DNA of 64,000 bases, taken from Bacillota bacterium (GTDB lineage: Bacteria; Bacillota; Limnochordia; Darwinibacteriales; Darwinibacteriaceae). The stretch spans positions 217 to 64,216 of the forward strand of contig JAAYOM010000124.1 in the NCBI GenBank assembly GCA_012520315.1. The letters are read 5' to 3'. Below are positions 3,837 through 56,040 of this stretch, piece by piece (position 1 is the first letter of the stretch; each line of letters opens with the position of its first letter). The notes beneath the pieces are model-generated. The model saw only the letters and a list, made by a program, of their open reading frames with translations. It was not told the DNA's origin and did no database searches. The position numbers were made by a program, and so were the translations under genes.

Positions 3837-4190
3837 GTGAAGAATGAAAAGGTATATAAAATGGCGTTTTCACGCGTTTATCCCTTGCTAGTGCAAAAAG
3901 CTGAAAGGAAAGGGAGAACCAAAGGCGAAGTCGACACCCTGATTTTCTGGTTGACAGGCTATGACGAAGCTGGCCTACAGGCCCAGCTTGACAAGGATGT
4001 TGATTATGAGACCTTTTTTGCTGAAGCTCCCCAGATGAACCCAAATGCAGAAAAGATCACTGGTGTGGTCTGCGGAGTTCGGGTCGAGAATATTGAAGAG
4101 CCCCTGATGCAAAAGATTAGGTGGCTGGACAAGCTCGTCGATGAACTGGCCAAGGGCAAGTCGTTGGAGAAGATCTTAAGAAAGGCATGA
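3837..4190 (+). CDS. DUF2200 family protein
   Basis: 117 aa. [34 protein letters not shown] matches my recollection of the DUF2200 N-terminus. GTG start follows GAGGAGGA embedded in the end of the upstream gene. Confidence 0.6.
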
Positions 4191-4246
4191 CACTATGGTA
4201 GGGAACTTCTACATGGTGAGGATAATATTACTGTGGAGGACTGTTC

Positions 4247-4960: not shown

Positions 4961-5578
4961 ATGAAAAGAAACTCTGGGGAGCGGACACTCCTCGCTTCTG
5001 TACTTCTCAGCTCACCGGGGCCGCTCGTGCTCGGTATCGCCCTTGTCTACGGCCGGTCATCTACCCAAATCGCTGACTTTATCAGGCGTACTGTAGAGCT
5101 TGGGGCAATCATTATATCCTGGATTGTTTTTCGGATGCTCCCCACAAGCAGCGAGCCTGACCCGTCCAGAAAAGCGAGGCTGGAAGCTCTCGCCAACACC
5201 TGTGTTGGTGCAGCTATGTTGCTTTCAGGGCTGGCGATGCTGTTTATAGCTGTCTTCTCGACGAGCCGAGATAAGGGAAATGTGATCCCAGGGCTGGCTA
5301 TTGCCTTCTTGGGAGTTATCGTGAATTTTTGGTTCTGGCTTCGCTACCGCAGGCTCAATCATGAACAGCCCAATGCCGTCCTCGAGGTGCAAAGCAGGCT
5401 TTACGGGGCGAAATTTGCCGTGGATACCTGTGTGGTCGTGGCACTATTGTTTGTAGCAGTTTTGCCCCACGCGCCCATTACCACTTATCTGGATGCGGGA
5501 GGTTCCATTGCTGTTGCACTCTACCTTGCCTGGAGCGGTATCAATACAATACGGAAGAGAGACATGGCCACCGAATAG
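4961..5578 (+). CDS. membrane protein resembling the transmembrane domain of cation-diffusion-facilitator transporters (no cytoplasmic C-terminal domain)
   Basis: 205 aa and about 6 TM. The layout ERTLLASVLL...STQIADFIRRTVE...LEVQSRLYGAKFAVDTC resembles the CDF TMD by eye. The assignment is weak. Confidence 0.35.
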   Translation: MKRNSGERTLLASVLLSSPGPLVLGIALVYGRSSTQIADFIRRTVELGAIIISWIVFRMLPTSSEPDPSRKARLEALANTCVGAAMLLSGLAMLFIAVFSTSRDKGNVIPGLAIAFLGVIVNFWFWLRYRRLNHEQPNAVLEVQSRLYGAKFAVDTCVVVALLFVAVLPHAPITTYLDAGGSIAVALYLAWSGINTIRKRDMATE

Positions 5579-5590
5579 GTGGTCTTTTTT
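5566..5590 (+). terminator. rho-independent terminator
   Basis: GGCCACC-gaata-GGTGGTC hairpin (one G-U pair) overlapping the stop codon, followed by TTTTTTA. Confidence 0.75.
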
Positions 5591-5617
5591 ATGCCCGGAA
5601 ACAAATCTGTTCGGAAA

Positions 5618-5659
5618 GTGATTTGGGTCACGGCAATTCTTTTGAGGTTAACCTATAAT
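5618..5659 (+). promoter_or_regulatory. pflB promoter: Crp/Fnr-type dyad GTGATttggGTCAC plus -10 TATAAT
   Basis: Perfect 5+5 inverted repeat with a 4-nt spacer at 5618-5631. TATAAT at 5654-5659. The dyad centre lies about 41.5 bp upstream of a start placed 7 nt after the -10. Confidence 0.6.
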
Positions 5660-5709: not shown

Positions 5710-7989
5710 ATGAGGAAAGAGTTATTTGAACGGACAGAAATGGCAGCGGCCTGGAAAGGTTTTAAGCCAGGTAATTGGTCCTGTGGGATTGATGTACGGG
5801 ATTTCATCCAGCAGAACTATGAACCCTATGACGGTGATGCCAGCTTTCTTGAGGACGCCACCGAGAGGACCAAGGCTCTTTGGAATCAGGTGGATGATCT
5901 GATCCAGGAGGAAGTCCGCAGCCGTTCCATTTCTGTGGATCTGGAGCACTTTAGCGGAATTGACAACTTCCCTCCCGGTTACATCGATCGGGATCAGGAA
6001 CTAATTGTGGGACTGCAGACAGACGAACCGCTAAAACGCATGATCAATCCCTACGGCGGTGTCCGGATGGTTGAAAGTGCCCTTAAAGCCTATGGGCTCA
6101 GCATGGAGCCTGGCCTTATGGAAAAGTTTAATGAATACCGCAAGACTCACAACCAAGGGGTCTTTGACGCTTACACAAAGCAAATGAGGACTGTTCGTTC
6201 TGCAGGCCTGCTGACGGGCCTACCCGATGCGTACGGACGGGGCAGAATTATCGGCGACTATCGGCGAGTAGCCCTGTATGGAGTCGACTATCTCAAAGAG
6301 ATGAGACTCAAGGACAAGGAGAATTTTTCCGATGGCGCGACAGAAGAGGCAATTCGCCTGAGGGAAGAGTTTTCGGAACAGATCAGGGCTTTAGATCAGC
6401 TGAAGGCCATGGCCGCTCGCTACGGCGTTGATATAGGCAGACCGGCAAAAACGGCTCAAGAAGCGGTGCAATGGCTGTACTTCGGCTACTTGGCAGCAGT
6501 GAAGGAGAACAATGGGGCAGCAACAAGTTTTGGCAGAAATACCGCTTTCCTCGATATATACCTGCAGCGTGATCTTGAACTAGGGGTGATTGATGAAAAA
6601 ACAGCCCAGGAATTCATTGATCAGCTGGTGATCAAGCTGCGGATGGTGAGACATCTGCGCACTCCTGAGTACGATGAACTCTTCGCAGGCGACCCTACTT
6701 GGGTAACCGAGTCTATAGGAGGCGTAGGCGAAGATGGCAGGCATTTGGTAACTAAGACTGCCTATCGCTTCCTGCATACCCTGATAAACCTAGGAACCTC
6801 CCCAGAACCGAATATGACGGTGCTGTGGTCTAAACACCTGCCGCGGGAATTCAAAGAGTACTGCGCCGATATGAGCATTAAGACCGCTTCTATCCAATAC
6901 GAAAACGATGATCTAATGCGTCCGATTTATGGTGACGATTATGCTATTGCCTGTTGCGTCTCGGCAATGCGGGTTGGCAAAGAAATGCAGTTCTTCGGAG
7001 CCAGGGCAAATCTCGCTAAGGCGCTGCTGTATGCCATCAATGGCGGCAGAGATGAAATAGCTCGGGATAAGGAAACGGGAGAACCAATTACAGTCTTGCC
7101 CGGAATCGGGCAAAATGACCAGGAGATACTGGATTACGCTGCAGTCTGGGCGAGTTTTCAAGAGGTTATGGATCAGCTTGCCAAAATTTATGTAGAGACG
7201 ATGAATACCATCCACTACATGCATGACAAGTATGCCTACGAGGCGGGGCAGATGGCTTTGCACGATCCTAATGTGCATCGCTATATCGCCTTTGGCATTG
7301 CAGGCCTTTCCATAGTAGCAGACTCCCTCTCAGCGATTAAGTACGCCAAGGTTCGGCCCCTTAGAAATGAACATGGTTTGGCTGTCGGTTTTGAAACCGA
7401 AGGCACCTTCCCTCGCTATGGCAACGATGATGATCGGGTGGATCAAATAGCGATTGAAGTTAATCGCTACTTTATGGATGCACTGCGCAAAACCCCAGCT
7501 TATAGAGGGGCAGAGCACACTTTGTCCCTGCTTACGATCACAAGCAATGTGGCGTACGGCAAGAAAACGGGTGCTACCCCCGATGGCCGTAAGTATGGGG
7601 AGGCCTTTGCACCGGGTGCCAACCCCATGAACGGCGCCGACGAGTCTGGTGCCCTAGCATCCTTGAACTCGGTGGCCAAGCTTCCATTTCGAGACGTCAA
7701 CCAAGATGGGATTTCCAACACTTTTTCCATCATACCGGCTGCCCTAGGTAAAAACGACACAGAACGACTAATCAATCTCACCAATGTGCTTGACGGATAC
7801 TTTGGACAGGGAGCTTTTCACCTCAATGTCAATGTCATGGACAGGGAGCTGCTCCTAGATGCCATGGAACACCCAGAGCAGTATCCAAATCTGACGATTC
7901 GAGTTTCGGGCTATGCGGTACGATTTAACCAGCTGAGCAGGGAACATCAGCTTGATGTAATTAACCGCACATTCTTTGAGTTTGTCTAA
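5710..7989 (+). CDS. pflB: formate C-acetyltransferase (pyruvate formate-lyase)
   Basis: 759 aa from ATG 5710. C-terminal glycyl-radical motif RVSGYAVRF, active-site CC (IACCVSA), and overall PFL-like sequence. Confidence 0.95.
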
Positions 7990-8014
7990 GCAAAACGTGG
8001 AGGTGAATCACTCT

Positions 8015-9517
8015 ATGCGAGGCTATCTGCAGTCTATTGAGACGATGGGGCTGGTGGACGGACCGGGTACTAGAACAATTTTTTTCATGCAAGGCTGTCC
8101 TTTGCGCTGCGCCTACTGCCATAACCCAGATGCCATTAGGCTTCAGGGGGGAAGAGAAATCACCCCTGCGGAAGTTTTGGAAATCGCCAGGCGTTACAGA
8201 TCCTATTATGGTGAAGACGGGGGTGTGACCTTTTCTGGAGGCGAACCCTTGCTGCAGGGAGAGTTTCTTCACAAATCCTTGGAGCTTTTGAAGCAGGAAG
8301 GCTATAATACTTGTATAGACACCTCCGGGATCGGCAACCGTGCATTTTTTCCAGACATTTTTCCCCTGGTGGACACCTTGATTATTGATGTTAAGGCCTT
8401 TGATCAGGAGTCCTTTGCCAATCTTACGTTGACCAAGGGTTTTGGGGAGTACCTGGACTTTTTGGCCAGTCTGGAAAACTATGGTTTCCAGGGTCAAGTC
8501 TGGGCTCGTCATGTGATGGTTCCAGGTTGGACAGATAATGAGCAGTCTATGCGAGACTTCGTCCGGATCTTAAGGCCGATTTGTCACCGGATTGACCGCA
8601 TCGAAATTCTTCCGTACCATACGGCAGGTGTCGAGAAGTATCGCAAGCTAGGGATGTCCTATCGTTTGGAAGGAGTAGAGCCTATGGACAAAGATAGAGC
8701 TAAGGAACTGGAGATTTACGCGAACAAAGTCTTTGCCGAGGACTTGCAGCAGGAAAGGAAAAAGGCTCAGGCGCGAAGTGAAGAAAAGTACAAGATTCTC
8801 AGAGATCGCCAGGTGGTTTCCAAACAGGAACAAGCGGAAATGTTTGCCTCTTTGCGGGAGCTTCCTCTCTTGCGGGAAGTGGCAGAAGGAGATGTGGAAG
8901 CTGTACTTGACGAGATTATCCTGTCTAATATCAAAGCGGGGGATTATATCTTTCGGACTGGGGATGCGCCGGATCTGATGTACTTGATTTACCAAGGTGA
9001 AATGAAAATCTTCTATAACACCATTGACGGCGAAGAACAGATCTTTTATATCTACCGTGATGGAGACTTCGTGGGAGGGCTGAACCTCTTGGTAGAGACA
9101 CCCTACCGCTATGTTGGCCAAGCTCTGACGGATTGCAGGATCATTGCCATTCCTAAGGCTACTTTCGACAAGTACTTCTATGACTCTTCCGTCGTTTTGC
9201 GCAGCGTGTTGACTAAAAGCTTCGACCGAATCCGCTGGGCCGAAGAGCTGATTCAAAGGCTGGCAACCAGCAACGCTTCTATGAAGACGGCTGGTTTGCT
9301 CCTTAAGCTTGTGAAGAGAATTGGTGTGGAGACCGAAGAGGGCATAAGACTGGAACTTTCCATGAACAGGGAAGAACTGGGCAACTATTCAGGTCTTAGG
9401 CGGGAGACTATTACAAGAAAACTCGGGCAGTTTAAGGATCTAGGTTATATTGATTTGGTGGGCAATAAAGTTATCATCGTTAAAGATCTGGAAGCGTTAG
9501 AGGCATATGTCCTGTAA
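8015..9517 (+). CDS. pflA: pyruvate formate-lyase activating enzyme (radical SAM) fused to a Crp/Fnr-family cNMP-binding/HTH regulator domain
   Basis: GGAGGTG SD 9 nt before ATG 8015. N-terminal half has VDGPGTRTIFFMQGCPLRCAYCHNPD (CxxxCxxC), GGEPLL and PGWTD, and ends where E. coli PflA ends (about 8735). A charged linker follows, then IKAGDYIFRTGDAPDLMYLIYQGEMKIF (beta-roll) and REELGNYSGLRRETITRKLGQFKDLGYI (HTH). There is no stop codon or frame change between the two halves. Confidence 0.85.
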   Translation: MRGYLQSIETMGLVDGPGTRTIFFMQGCPLRCAYCHNPDAIRLQGGREITPAEVLEIARRYRSYYGEDGGVTFSGGEPLLQGEFLHKSLELLKQEGYNTCIDTSGIGNRAFFPDIFPLVDTLIIDVKAFDQESFANLTLTKGFGEYLDFLASLENYGFQGQVWARHVMVPGWTDNEQSMRDFVRILRPICHRIDRIEILPYHTAGVEKYRKLGMSYRLEGVEPMDKDRAKELEIYANKVFAEDLQQERKKAQARSEEKYKILRDRQVVSKQEQAEMFASLRELPLLREVAEGDVEAVLDEIILSNIKAGDYIFRTGDAPDLMYLIYQGEMKIFYNTIDGEEQIFYIYRDGDFVGGLNLLVETPYRYVGQALTDCRIIAIPKATFDKYFYDSSVVLRSVLTKSFDRIRWAEELIQRLATSNASMKTAGLLLKLVKRIGVETEEGIRLELSMNREELGNYSGLRRETITRKLGQFKDLGYIDLVGNKVIIVKDLEALEAYVL

Positions 9518-9538: not shown

Positions 9539-9587
9539 CTAAGGCACTCTCCGAAATCGGGGCGTGCCTTAGTCTTTTGTAGTTTTT
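9539..9587 (+). terminator. rho-independent terminator after the pflA fusion gene
   Basis: CTAAGGCAC-N16-GTGCCTTAG hairpin followed by TCTTTTGTAGTTTTT. Confidence 0.7.
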
Positions 9588-9595
9588 CGGGGAAC

Positions 9596-9637
9596 TTGAT
9601 CTAGATCATTTTTCCTGAACAGGACTGGTGCTACAAT
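9596..9637 (+). promoter_or_regulatory. FNR-type dyad TTGATctagATCAt plus extended -10 TGcTACAAT
   Basis: Dyad at 9596-9609. TG-n-TACAAT at 9629-9637. The dyad centre is about -41.5 relative to a start 7 nt after the -10. Confidence 0.6.
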
Positions 9638-9689: not shown

Positions 9690-9983
9690 ATGAAGAGATT
9701 TAATCAAGTAATGGAACTCCATGGAGATAAGCTCGAACTTTATGTACCGGTTGTAGCCCGTGTTCACGGTGGAAGCCATCCTGAGTTCCATTCTGTGAGG
9801 CAAGTATACGATCAGATGATCAGTAAGATAGAGGCGGCAGGGACCGAAAGAGTCCAGCTTGATGCTGAGTTTGCGGAGTTGCGGAAAATCACCGACAGTT
9901 ATTCTGTGCCGGATGATGTCTGTGAGAGCTATGCGGCCGTCTATGAGATGTTGGCTGAACTTGACAGGGCTTACTTTGGGTAA
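9690..9983 (+). CDS. small protein with partial similarity to RIC/YtfE-type hemerythrin-like di-iron proteins
   Basis: AAAGGAG SD. 97 aa. The segments VARVHGGSHPEF and SYSVPDDVCESYAAVYEMLAELD resemble YtfE segments (VERVHADKP.., [20 protein letters not shown]) by eye. The other His/Glu ligand motifs are missing. Confidence 0.35.
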   Translation: MKRFNQVMELHGDKLELYVPVVARVHGGSHPEFHSVRQVYDQMISKIEAAGTERVQLDAEFAELRKITDSYSVPDDVCESYAAVYEMLAELDRAYFG

Positions 9984-11888: not shown

Positions 11889-11931
11889 TTGATCTGGATC
11901 AATGTTTCTTGGGCCAAGCTGGGAGATAATA
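11889..11931 (+). promoter_or_regulatory. perfect FNR-consensus dyad TTGATctggATCAA plus -10 (GATAAT/TAATAT)
   Basis: Dyad at 11889-11902. -10 candidates at 11924-11929 and 11926-11931. The dyad centre falls at about -40.5 to -42.5. Confidence 0.6.
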
Positions 11932-12258: not shown

Positions 12259-13233
12259 TCAGCGAATGATCCATTCCGGCCTTTTCAGGTCTTGTTTGTT
12301 TTTCCCAATGGGTTTGGCTGGGAATCCTTCTAGAATTTGGTGATCCTCAAACACGCTTCGCTGTTTTACCAAGCTGCCGGCTTTCACTAAAGTGTTTTTT
12401 CCAAGCCTGCTGTAATCGCAAACGACAGAACCTGATTCTATGACACTGCCTGCCCCTATGTGAGTGCCATGGATGATACACCCCGGTCCGATAGTCACAT
12501 TGTCTTCGATTATCAGCTTATTGTCTGGCAAAAGATGCAGCACTGTGTTCTCCAGGATTTGTACATTAGCACCAATCCGCACCGGACCATGGGAATTGCC
12601 GATGATCCTTACGCCAGATGCGATTACGGTGTTCTCTCCAATAATAACATCGCCTGTAATCTCCGCGGATTCGTAGACTAGAGCTGACTTGGGCACCACT
12701 GGATACTTGCCTTCGTACTCGTAAAGGTTACCCATCGTTTTCCCTCCCAGATCTTCCCGGTTGATGACATTCTCCACATGGGGGTCCAGGCCTAGACTCC
12801 CACCCCGCATTCTGCTGATTAAATCTCTATCCTCAGACGTTAGTTTCCGAATTACCCTTCCCGGTCTGCCCACAACGACAGAACCTGATGGAACAACATG
12901 ACCTGGGGGAATCAATGTACCCTCGCCAAAGATGCATAGATCGCCTACTTTTGACCCTGGCAGGAACATTGCACCATTGCCAATCTCACATAGATTACCA
13001 ATTGAAGCACCAATGGCAATACATTTATGGCCAAAAATTGTCTTGCTTCCAACTGCCAGCGGATGTTTCTCTGTGCCGATGAGAACCGAGTTCTCCAGTA
13101 TCCACGATGCATTTCCTACCATGAGCGAGTCAGAGTTGGAGCGGAGTACCGATCCCTGTGCAACATAGGCATCCGTTCCCAGTCTCACCCGGCCTACGAG
13201 CGTGGCAGAATGGTCAATTTTAACATTTGGCAT
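12259..13233 (-). CDS. tandem left-handed beta-helix (hexapeptide repeat) protein: two gamma-carbonic-anhydrase/acetyltransferase-like halves
   Basis: AGGGAGGG SD upstream of ATG 13233 (MPNVKIDHSATLVGRV...). Two consecutive LbH domains, each ending in the usual C-terminal helix region (..GRPGRVIRKLTSED.. and ..EGFPAKPIGK..). The ORF-track extension to 13683 is not credible. Confidence 0.75.
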   Translation of the reverse strand: MPNVKIDHSATLVGRVRLGTDAYVAQGSVLRSNSDSLMVGNASWILENSVLIGTEKHPLAVGSKTIFGHKCIAIGASIGNLCEIGNGAMFLPGSKVGDLCIFGEGTLIPPGHVVPSGSVVVGRPGRVIRKLTSEDRDLISRMRGGSLGLDPHVENVINREDLGGKTMGNLYEYEGKYPVVPKSALVYESAEITGDVIIGENTVIASGVRIIGNSHGPVRIGANVQILENTVLHLLPDNKLIIEDNVTIGPGCIIHGTHIGAGSVIESGSVVCDYSRLGKNTLVKAGSLVKQRSVFEDHQILEGFPAKPIGKNKQDLKRPEWIIR

Positions 13234-13323
13234 AGGCAGCCCTCCCTGCTTTGGGTTGATTATAACATAAATCGGCTGGGTCTGGGCGGTCTGGCAAGTT
13301 TGGGGCAGAACTCCCTCTTGCAT

Positions 13324-13363
13324 AGAAAACTTGGCAAAAAGTGTTGACAAGAAAACTTGGCAA
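13324..13363. repeat. perfect 14-nt direct repeat AGAAAACTTGGCAA x2 flanking a TTGACA hexamer
   Basis: Copies at 13324-13337 and 13350-13363, spaced 26 bp start to start. They lie in the divergent intergenic region between the LbH gene and the membrane-protein/XRE operon. Confidence 0.8.
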
Positions 13364-13378
13364 CAGGGAGGAATTGTG

Positions 13379-13708
13379 ATGACAAAGGAAGAAATTTTGG
13401 CACGCAGCCGTGGGGAAGGAAACAGGGAATACGAGGACAAGGTCAGTTTCGATGCGATGGGCAGGAGCGTATGGGTTCTAGCTGGTATATGCATATTCTT
13501 TGCTCTGGTGAAGATTGTCCTCTCCGACTTACGCGGACTTGAAAAGGTGATTCCTTTTTGGGAGTTTCCAGCCATATTGTTTGCCCATAGTTCTGTAACG
13601 AGACTGTATATGTATAATGCTCTCAAATCGAAGTCTGACCTGACTTTCGGCGCTTTGTCCGCTCTATTGTTCATTATCTGCACTTTTTTCTATGTGGTGA
13701 CGCTGTGA
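13379..13708 (+). CDS. small 3-TM membrane protein (DUF6442-like) paired with an XRE regulator
   Basis: GGAGG SD before ATG 13379. MTKEEILARSRGEGNREYEDKV... followed by TM segments. This gene type usually precedes YozG-like regulators. Confidence 0.5.
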   Translation: MTKEEILARSRGEGNREYEDKVSFDAMGRSVWVLAGICIFFALVKIVLSDLRGLEKVIPFWEFPAILFAHSSVTRLYMYNALKSKSDLTFGALSALLFIICTFFYVVTL

Positions 13709-55302: not shown

Positions 55303-56040
55303 GTGTCTCGATGCTGGTTTTTAGTGTTACACAAGCGCCAGATCTGCTATGTGCTGTTGGCTCTGGGCTTGGTGGTGCTGCTGTCTATCTACAGCTCATA
55401 TCCTCTTGGCATGCATACCCTCAGCCTAATCGACCAAGACGTCATTTTTGATGTAATGCTTGACCCAGGACATGGGGGAATTGACCCTGGTGCCATTGGG
55501 GCAGGCGACATCTATGAGAAGCATTATGTCCTTGACATAGTGCTGCAAATGGCCGAAATTCTGCGTTCCCAGGGCCTAAGCGTCGGACTTACCAGGGACA
55601 GTGACCGTGATGTAAGTCACCTGGTCAGTGAAGGAACTCGCCATCGCAGAGATCTGCTCGGGCGTTTCAAGCTGATGAATCAAGCCCGTTTAGGAATGAG
55701 CGTTCATGCTAATGCCACCAAGAACAAAGAGGAATCAGGGGCCCTCGTATTTTACATGAAAGACAAGTACTTGGACGAAATCTATGCTACACTGGTCATA
55801 GAAGAGTTGGCTAAAGTGCAGGTGCTTAACGAATCTCGTCCCCTGCCCCGTACCACGCTCTTGCTGCCTAAGGCTAAACCGCCGGTGGTGCTGGTAGAGG
55901 TAGGATTTATGTCTAATCCTGCAGACCTCGAAAAACTCGGCGACCCTCGGTTTCGAACCAGTGTGGCTCATGCTCTCTGCGCAGGAATCATGCGCTTTCT
56001 AGAGTGGCGTGAAGGCGAGCAAAGTGAGTCTAGTCCTTAA
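55303..56040 (+). CDS. cwlD: N-acetylmuramoyl-L-alanine amidase, CwlD-type (spore cortex)
   Basis: N-terminal TM then LDPGHGGIDPGA, SVHANA and VEVGFMSNPADLEKL (amidase_3). Confidence 0.8.
   Translation: MSRCWFLVLHKRQICYVLLALGLVVLLSIYSSYPLGMHTLSLIDQDVIFDVMLDPGHGGIDPGAIGAGDIYEKHYVLDIVLQMAEILRSQGLSVGLTRDSDRDVSHLVSEGTRHRRDLLGRFKLMNQARLGMSVHANATKNKEESGALVFYMKDKYLDEIYATLVIEELAKVQVLNESRPLPRTTLLLPKAKPPVVLVEVGFMSNPADLEKLGDPRFRTSVAHALCAGIMRFLEWREGEQSESSP

Follow-up and report, generated by a model that had tools for sequence, protein, structure and literature searches.

In Escherichia coli, PflA, the activase of pyruvate formate-lyase (PFL), is encoded directly after pflB, and the pfl promoter is activated by FNR, a class II activator that acts from about -41.5 and holds an oxygen-labile [4Fe-4S] cluster within its own polypeptide. 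CRP, of the same superfamily, reads GTGA half-sites through the R180/E181/R185 pattern of its recognition helix, and the core of its consensus site is GTGAT-N4-ATCAC. Trigger enzymes and enzyme-repressor fusions such as PutA, BirA, and NadR combine an enzyme with a DNA-binding domain in a single polypeptide. Here, we describe a gene in which elements of these systems are combined. In a 64,000-nt stretch of DNA (the window; forward strand, positions 217-64,216 of contig JAAYOM010000124.1 from a Bacillota bacterium), the open reading frame (ORF) that follows pflB encodes PflA, a linker, and a complete Crp/Fnr regulator.

We favor, with a probability of roughly 60%, the view that this product is a bifunctional protein, a PFL activase that also serves its own pfl operon as a dedicated class II activator, with the two halves working as autonomous modules and any sensing being carried out by the beta-roll of the regulator. 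What is new here is the conserved pflB-pflA-regulator module, a group of sister regulators with four N-terminal cysteines, and a CRP-type operator at -41.5 of pflB. The three together make a testable, sequence-based case for a self-activating pfl operon.

A single reading frame encodes PflA and a Crp/Fnr regulator

An earlier note on this DNA had reported one uninterrupted 500-codon ORF holding a full PflA and a full Crp/Fnr protein, and both the open frame and the domain content confirm that report (Table 1). The stop-free frame spans 7976-9517 (stop codon at 9515-9517), and its likely start is the ATG at 8015, 25 nt past the pflB stop. Pfam matches to the 500-residue product comprise Radical_SAM (residues 23-182, 1e-23), Fer4_12 (14-127), cNMP_binding (305-387, 2.5e-19), HTH_Crp_2 (426-498, 1e-15), and Crp (448-477), and the strings quoted in the note (CPLRCAYCHNPD, GGEPLL, PGWTD, and RRETITR) are all found in it. 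For comparison with relatives, a scan of one genome per species identified 131 species with a relative of the C-terminal half (C half), and 80 loci were taken from these.

The window apparently derives from a metagenome-assembled genome (MAG), and one relative (locus L025) carries an in-frame TGA in the linker (~1736-1738; a fission, a pseudogene, or a sequencing error), as might be expected if two ordinary adjacent genes had been joined by a missed stop or a frameshift. The identical 500-residue protein, however, is present on contigs from NCBI, JGI, and ENA and also in two independent assemblies (ENA ERZ2648292 and Logan SRR24100336), and the uninterrupted frame recurs in 52 of the 80 species loci and in at least 120 clusters at 90% identity. 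An artefact of assembly or sequencing is ruled out on these grounds, with a residual probability that we consider negligible, and the junction is that of a real fusion. Internal initiation at ATG 8840, which would produce a separate regulator, is not a feature of the family, because in a 24-sequence alignment this Met is kept only in relatives with at least ~70% identity; in most relatives below ~70%, the residue is I or L.

Class of the regulator half

The C half is a member of the Crp/Fnr superfamily. It scores 69.5 bits with cNMP_binding and 57.7 bits with HTH_Crp_2 (Pfam gathering thresholds of 27.5 and 27, respectively), its AlphaFold2 secondary structure contains the long C-helix and the helix-turn-helix (HTH) at the places listed in Table 1, and it has 99 PDB matches of Crp/Fnr type. 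Matches to the NCBIfam models for Fnr, FixK, and CRP over residues 297-499 are weak. The best-scoring solved relative is Aliivibrio fischeri FNR, residues 50-248 (E 1e-18; 5CVR/5E44), which has the same plan of beta-roll, C-helix, and HTH; these residues are the portion past the cluster peptide of FNR.

The protein is nonetheless not an FNR proper. It has neither the N-terminal Cys peptide nor an equivalent of C122, and no Cys occurs between residue 194 and C373 of the fusion. C373, the single Cys of the C half, was rejected as a cluster ligand for want of conservation; it also falls at a different alignment position from E. coli FNR C122. The earlier note was thus correct that the regulator half lacks the Cys cluster of FNR, and inspection of all cysteines bears out its statement that the radical-SAM (S-adenosylmethionine) cluster, which lies in a separate domain, is the sole Fe-S site of the polypeptide. 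Furthermore, the recognition helix reads R-E-T-I-T-R, whereas that of FNR reads V-E-T-I-S-R (the E-x2-S-R pattern), the operator is GTGAT rather than TTGAT (TTGAT-N4-ATCAA in full for FNR), and the FNR model PRK11161 yields 77 bits against a cutoff of 228.

The recognition helix instead has the character of CRP, as the note had read it. Starting at R463 (nt 9401), it runs R463-E464-T-I-T-R468-K469-L470; among 100 homologues, a set that reaches down to 47% identity, R463, R468, K469, and L470 are invariant and E464 is present in at least 90%. The CRP combination of an R180-E181-x3-R185 helix with GTGA half-sites is found here, and the R-E-x3-R helix is shared with E. coli CRP/CAP, Mycobacterium tuberculosis Crp (MtbCRP), and GlxR, of which MtbCRP and GlxR are also structural matches. 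The differences from CRP lie in the effector domain and in scope. When the positions of the cAMP contacts E72, R82, S83, T127, and S128 were compared (E. coli numbering), the contacts were not kept: E72 is replaced by G355, S83 by an invariant Y364, and the position of R82 is variable (R/L/W/I/K). The score with the CRP model NF008732 (55 bits) is far under its cutoff of 266, and the regulator looks local and confined to a single operon, not global. By default, the candidate site for an input signal is the beta-roll, which is strongly conserved. Neither tblastn nor the family hidden Markov model detected a second Crp/Fnr gene in the 64-kb window.

A CRP-type operator at the pflB promoter

The upstream regions of pflB in 64 loci and in the window (65 in all) were compared; 64 have a GTGA-N6-TCAC dyad 40-180 nt before the start, and the lone region without it ends at a contig end. 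Of the 67 perfect dyads counted in 811 kb of related loci, 63 lie at the pflB promoter; base-frequency arithmetic predicts ~12 anywhere in that length. The window as a whole is not enriched in such dyads (24 one-mismatch matches versus 21.6 in shuffles). The consensus is a-A-A-w-a-GTGAT-N4-(A/G)TCAC-w-G-C, and its core, GTGAT-N4-ATCAC, is identical to that of the CRP consensus. The GTGAT half-site agrees with the invariant R463-E464-x3-R468 helix.

The placement of the dyad is that of an activator site. A TATAAT-like hexamer begins 29.5 bp past the dyad center in 48 of 64 loci (28.5 bp in five others), a spacing that centers the dyad at about -41.5, and sites centered near -41.5 are the geometry of class II promoters dependent on CRP or FNR. 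A sigma-70 scan, which needs a -35 element, found no promoter at pflB, as would be expected of a class II promoter; the site has no -35 element. The comparison provides a specific operator, wwGTGAT-N4-ATCACwG at -41.5 of pflB. The earlier note had proposed matching FNR-type dyads at activator positions in front of pflB and of two neighboring transcription units. For pflB the position holds, but the type does not: the site reads GTGA, not TTGA, and an FNR-type operator was rejected. The two further dyads, TTGAT sites at 9596 and 11889, occur in the two nearest relatives (L001 and L002) and in no other locus examined, and they were dropped as targets general to the family.

The dyad might belong to another regulator, such as Rex or a cAMP-CRP encoded elsewhere, in which case the C half would have other targets or none. 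Rex controls pfl genes in Firmicutes, and its operator (TTGTGAA-N4-TTCACAA) has the same GTGA-N6-TCAC spacing; moreover, every locus was chosen because it holds the regulator, so that the set lacks a negative control, and use of the dyad by the C half is a prediction. The bases next to the half-sites argue otherwise. GTGA is followed by T in 56 of 64 sites and by A in none, and TCAC is preceded by A or G, never by T; the Rex core GTGAA..TTCAC is accordingly absent from all of them, and a Rex operator was rejected on this basis. In addition, the dyad replaces the -35 element in the manner of an activator site, the R-E-x3-R helix predicts GTGA half-sites by analogy with R180/E181/R185 of CRP, and regulator and site occur together in 64 of 65 regions whether the regulator is fused, split, or equipped with four cysteines. 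We therefore regard ownership of the dyad by another regulator as very unlikely.

The gene behind this promoter is a true PFL gene. Its product matches the Pfam PFL-like and Gly_radical domains and scores 1159 bits with TIGR01255 (cutoff 994).

Fused, split, and four-cysteine forms of the module

Gene order in the 80 loci was established by tblastn with three queries taken from the window, namely PflB, the PflA half, and the Crp half. The order pflB-pflA-regulator was found in 72 of them, and four others end at contig ends; the module is conserved in Clostridia, Tissierellia, and Limnochordia. The regulator is clearly fused in 52 loci (one frame of ~500-590 codons with CX3CX2C) and probably fused, though damaged, in three (L017, L025, and L030). 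It is split in 19, forming a separate ORF that starts ~0-90 nt from the pflA stop, often with its own ribosome-binding site (RBS). Four loci hold the regulator without pflBA (L048, L063, L070, and L080), and two are cut by a contig end.

Twelve of the 19 split regulators, from Tissierella, Tissierellaceae, and Wansuia (L052, L055, L056, L057, L061, L069, and L073-L078), begin with a four-Cys motif such as MERCINCKLCGSNRCINNVPLL. This N-terminal motif, C-x2-C-x2..8-C-x4..6-C-(I/L)-x-N-(I/V)-P-L-(L/F), can be aligned with the FNR cluster peptide of E. coli (C16/C20/C23/C29-IPF). The other seven (L045, L047, L049, L051, L054, L066, and L068) have no Cys motif. The four-Cys proteins pair an FNR-like Cys motif with a CRP-type R-E-x3-R helix and GTGA operators, and from these features they look like an uncharacterized FNR-like sensor group dedicated to pfl. 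In the fusions, the linker joins at the position that corresponds exactly to the end of the Cys motif (LRELPLL versus C-INN-IPLL).

Stand-alone regulators following pflA (in Tissierella, Tissierellaceae, Wansuia, Mageeibacillus, and some Oscillospiraceae) are 43-53% identical to the C half. They are separate genes, with or without the four-Cys motif, and otherwise resemble the C half in signatures, in position, and in the dyad at -41.5 of pflB. Fused, split, and four-Cys forms have in common the DFVGGxN...Y-x-Y beta-roll, the RIRWAE C-helix, and the R-E-x3-R-K-L helix, and there is accordingly no interface signature specific to the fusion.

In a neighbor-joining tree, midpoint-rooted and built without an outgroup, the four-Cys regulators group together in a single clade. 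Split regulators that lack the Cys motif are interspersed with fused ones (Mageeibacillus L045 and L047 split; L058, L062, and L079 fused), which indicates that fusion or fission occurred more than once. As the tree has no outgroup, we can only infer the direction, fusion first or fission first.

Several four-Cys loci have a hairpin and T-run terminator past pflA (L052 ~4186-4215, L074 ~5875-5960, and L076/L077), and in L074 a promoter-like TTGCAA...TATAAT precedes the regulator gene. The regulator of these loci seems to be transcribed separately, unlike the fused form, and the circuit would then differ between forms.

The regulators found without pflBA, including those of Lancefieldella sp. 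(L063) and Amygdalobacter indicium (L070), are 44-53% identical; within ~6 kb of these four genes there is neither pflBA nor a perfect GTGA dyad. Lancefieldella is an actinobacterium, and the subfamily thus extends outside the Bacillota. In locus L081 (7661-9975), pflB is called as two ORFs (413 and 357 residues) beside an intact fusion, probably through an assembly frameshift.

The activase half

E. coli PflA and the N-terminal half (N half) align over their full extent: residues 3-231 of the fusion pair with 4-231 of the 245 residues in the chain of PDB 3C8F (E 2e-47), in keeping with the earlier statement that this half ends near 8735. The AlphaFold2 model has a predicted local distance difference test (pLDDT) score of ~93 for residues 1-240 and reproduces the partial TIM barrel of E. 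coli PflA; Foldseek superimposes the N half on 3CB8_A with a template modeling (TM) score of 0.90 and a root-mean-square deviation of 1.9 Å over 242 columns, and TM scores with the E. coli PflA structures are 0.88-0.90. The cluster residues C28/C32/C35, the adjoining H36/N37/P38, the D15-G16-P17-G18-x-R20 (DGPGxR) loop, GGE, D125/K127, R165-H166, and Y201-H202 are invariant in the 100 homologues, and the cluster motif, the loop, and GGE are shared with E. coli PflA. The SAM-binding residues of the E. coli PflA structure are also conserved. Compared with the E. coli enzyme, the fusion has an additional C-terminal extension of 260 residues (linker plus Crp/Fnr regulator).

With the NCBIfam model for PflA, TIGR02493, the full-length protein scores 227.9 bits and the N half alone 230.7 bits (residues 5-232, covering 227 of 235 profile positions), 1-4 bits short of the trusted equivalog cutoff of 231.75 bits; its close homologues are named PflA by NCBI. 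The shortfall would suit a catalytically dead PflA half that serves as a structural or sensory appendage while a separate PflA encoded elsewhere activates PFL. Several observations speak against such a role: the catalytic motifs are invariant, the predicted fold is that of E. coli PflA, and lineages with a split regulator hold an ordinary stand-alone pflA at the same position. The 64-kb window contains no second pflA homologue, and in all loci but one the gene is the sole activase homologue adjoining pflB, the exception being Wansuia L075, with a weak second match. We consider a dead activase highly improbable; judged by its conserved residues and modeled fold, the activase half looks fully functional.

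Proposed mechanism and coupling of the two halves

According to the reading that we favor, the C half would dimerize through its long C-helix, bind the GTGAT-N4-ATCAC dyad at about -41.5, and activate transcription of pflB-pflA::crp as a class II activator; it very probably does turn on its own operon. In the fused form, the regulator would be co-translated with the activase and so drive its own synthesis (positive autoregulation), and the N half would install the glycyl radical on PflB. The fusion itself would have arisen from adjacent genes, with loss of an ancestral FNR-like N-terminal Cys peptide and its replacement by a helical Glu/Lys/Arg-rich tether of ~45 residues. This tether would fix a 1:1 ratio of activase to activator and tie both to the output of the operon.

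The properties of the linker are consistent with independent halves. A Lys/Glu/Gln-rich linker had been described by the earlier note and is present (Glu, Lys, and Arg make up 36% of its residues), and it is somewhat longer than the ~35 residues given there: the span between the conserved N237 and P284 is most often 46 residues (54 of 100 homologues; range 39-71). Mean column identity is 0.35-0.39 in the linker versus 0.7-0.9 in the domains. In the AlphaFold2 model, a helix at residues 226-264 extends the last helix of PflA (pLDDT ~70) and is followed by a short helix at 270-280, with linker pLDDT values of 54-70. The domains are predicted with confidence (pLDDT ~90, mean of 86.7 for the whole model) and their relative placement is not, the predicted TM (pTM) score being 0.57; a homologue with 47% identity gave a pTM of 0.54 and pLDDT below 50 at residues 260-266. 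These two monomer models show no confident interdomain arrangement, and they predict no fixed PflA-Crp interface. The interleaving of split and fused forms in the tree, the variable linker, and the low pTM values all favor autonomy. The halves are most likely autonomous modules on a flexible tether, and we do not consider it likely that the radical-SAM cluster and the HTH are rigidly coupled by allostery.

The activase half could alternatively act as the sensor, as the earlier note had suggested, with the integrity of the [4Fe-4S] cluster, SAM occupancy, or docking onto PFL gating dimerization or DNA binding by the Crp half. The protein would then be a regulator responsive to oxygen, redox state, or substrate, that is, a radical-SAM trigger enzyme. 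The FNR-like peptide of the four-Cys sister regulators sits exactly where the linker of the fusion joins, so that PflA stands in the place of the Fe-S sensor that was lost, and no Fe-S site other than the radical-SAM cluster remains. The fusion has also been kept across deep divergence with a modal linker of 46 residues, and the apparent separate terminator and promoter of the regulator in four-Cys loci would mean that the circuit changed together with the sensor. Set against these points are the seven split regulators that have neither a Cys motif nor PflA, which branch among fused regulators and have retained the dyad, the divergence and variable length of the linker, the absence of a confident interdomain arrangement in both models, and the sameness of the beta-roll and C-helix signatures in all three forms. 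On this evidence, we consider a sensory activase unlikely, although it is the most substantial of the alternatives. The corresponding evolutionary proposal, that the radical-SAM activase domain took over the role of the N-terminal Fe-S peptide of FNR, is held equally tentatively. If true, the protein would be the first radical-SAM enzyme to double as a transcription factor, and the family would offer a natural series of sensor swaps, from a four-Cys peptide through no sensor to a whole enzyme. A still more speculative variant is that an activase tethered at the pflB promoter would be positioned beside nascent PflB.

Several considerations weigh against autonomous halves and a dedicated self-activator. 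We infer DNA binding, activation, and activase activity alike from sequence, and the N half falls just below the TIGR02493 cutoff. A self-activating regulator devoid of a sensor makes an odd circuit. The survey of relatives covered ~6 kb to either side of the regulator, and a larger regulon is therefore possible. Monomer AlphaFold models are blind to interfaces specific to the dimer or to the complex with PFL. Finally, the fusion is retained in 52 of 80 species loci and down to 47% identity; this long retention, together with the modal linker length, hints at selected rather than neutral linkage, and selection would fit some functional coupling of the halves.

As in PutA, BirA, and NadR, the predicted target of the fusion is the operon of the enzyme's own pathway. 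The enzyme of the fusion, in contrast, is a radical-SAM protein, its DNA-binding fold is different, and it is predicted to activate, whereas PutA, BirA, and NadR repress. In trigger enzymes the catalytic state controls DNA binding, and the fusion resembles them conceptually, by its architecture and the position of its predicted operator. We know of no radical-SAM trigger enzyme, and none was found in full-text literature searches.

Three natural forms of the regulator are available, namely with a four-Cys sensor, with no sensor, and fused to the activase. With them, the way in which sensory modules are exchanged among Crp/Fnr proteins becomes testable, as does the idea that a radical-SAM cluster can serve as a regulatory sensor of oxygen or redox state. 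Should the halves be independent, a dedicated family of pfl regulators in Gram-positive anaerobes would still have been identified, and positive autoregulation of fermentative formate production would still be predicted.

Distribution and annotation

A search of 5.8 billion proteins returned 556 matches. The best 120 clusters (90% identity), which extend down to 47% identity, all contain proteins of ~500 residues with the same four domains, so that the number of fused clusters is at least 120. Clustering at 50% identity left two full-length fused representatives among 1.84 billion proteins, which indicates one tight family; it probably had a single origin followed by later fissions. Cultured carriers include Finegoldia magna DSM 20470, Neofamilia massiliensis, and Gallicola. 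Further loci come from digester and gut MAGs of Limnochordia, Peptoniphilaceae, Christensenellaceae, Oscillospiraceae, and Mageeibacillus, and the nearest one, in a Bacillota MAG, is 96% identical over the C half. A contig labeled as a Chloroflexota MAG (L015, JAKOUW010000021.1) carries a pflB-fusion locus ~80% identical to the Bacillota ones and is likely to reflect a binning error, not a real occurrence in Chloroflexota.

Fused homologues, where named, are called only "pyruvate formate-lyase-activating protein". Annotation as PflA hides the regulator half in hundreds of genomes, including that of the human opportunist F. magna. Both parts are textbook proteins, and no description of them joined was found in the full-text literature, with subscription-only papers not covered. 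The earlier note knew of no characterized protein with this architecture, and the full-text searches likewise turned up none, yet the fusion is not rare: it is widespread among anaerobic Firmicutes. PFL has been proposed to be central to pyruvate use in F. magna (bioRxiv 10.64898/2026.09.07.749807); the preprint discusses the enzyme and does not mention the fusion.

Features of the pfl unit and other sites in the window

Table 1. Features of the pfl unit, with nucleotide positions in the window and residue numbers of the fusion protein
Feature	Position	Strand	Remarks
Terminator-like hairpin and T-run ending the preceding transporter gene	5566-5594	+	Stem 5566-5584, 7 pairs, then TTTTTTAT
Operator dyad GTGATTTGGGTCAC, predicted site of the Crp half	5618-5631	.	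CRP-type GTGA-N6-TCAC; conserved upstream of pflB
-10 hexamer TATAAT	5654-5659	+	Starts 29.5 bp after dyad center; no -35 element
pflB, formate C-acetyltransferase, 759 residues	5710-7989	+	ATG 5710 with RBS AAAGGTGA; longest ORF from 5674
Shine-Dalgarno sequence GGAGG of the fusion gene	7999-8003	+	11 nt before ATG 8015; read from sequence
Fusion gene (PflA, linker, Crp/Fnr regulator)	8015-9517	+	500 codons plus stop
PflA (PFL activase) half, residues 1-240	8015-8734	+	TIGR02493, 3C8F alignment, 3CB8 superposition
Radical-SAM cluster motif C28-x3-C32-x2-C35, then H36 N37 P38	8096-8119	+	Invariant in both alignments
Linker, residues 241-283	8735-8863	+	Predicted helical, poorly conserved
Beta-roll (cNMP_binding-like) effector domain, residues 305-387	8927-9175	+	Pfam; cAMP contacts not kept
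Long C-helix (Crp/Fnr dimerization helix), residues 392-436	9188-9322	+	Signature (E/D)RIRWAE; alignments, model
HTH, residues 452-476	9368-9442	+	Pfam, alignments, AlphaFold2 model
Terminator-like hairpin CTAAGGCAC...GTGCCTTAG and T-rich run, end of the pflB-pflA::crp unit	9539-9587	+	Folding

The pfl unit is bracketed by the two terminator-like hairpins of Table 1. The segment 9530-9592, which includes the downstream one, folds with -28.3 kcal/mol (z = -4.7; 0 of 200 shuffles as stable), and the upstream ORF (4961-5578) has a CDF-family match. The only other perfect GTGA-N6-TCAC dyad in the window (GTGATGTAAGTCAC, 55607-55620) falls inside an ORF (55303-56040) and is probably due to chance; a wider regulon within the window was rejected.

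The FNR-type dyads of the window are TTGATCTAGATCAT (9596-9609) and TTGATCTGGATCAA (11889-11902), with counterparts at 6735 and 9029 in L001 and at 6671 in L002. Each has a -10-like hexamer 29.5 bp past its center (TACAAT at 9632-9637 and GATAAT at 11925-11930). The dyad at 11889 precedes an HMA protein, and that at 9596 precedes a 97-residue ORF and a heavy-metal P-type ATPase. The 97-residue ORF (9690-9983), the first gene past the 9596 dyad, has no Pfam match; it weakly matches TIGR03652 (44 bits, far below cutoff) in the C-terminal portion of that model, which describes RIC/ScdA, a di-iron protein of Fe-S cluster repair. The ORF lies beside an operon that encodes an Fe-S enzyme.

A 474-residue ORF on the reverse strand (12259-13683) starts at GTG. 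The identical region is called as much shorter hexapeptide-repeat genes in L081 (218 and 94 residues) and L082 (324 residues), and the long ORF is therefore probably over-extended at its 5' end.

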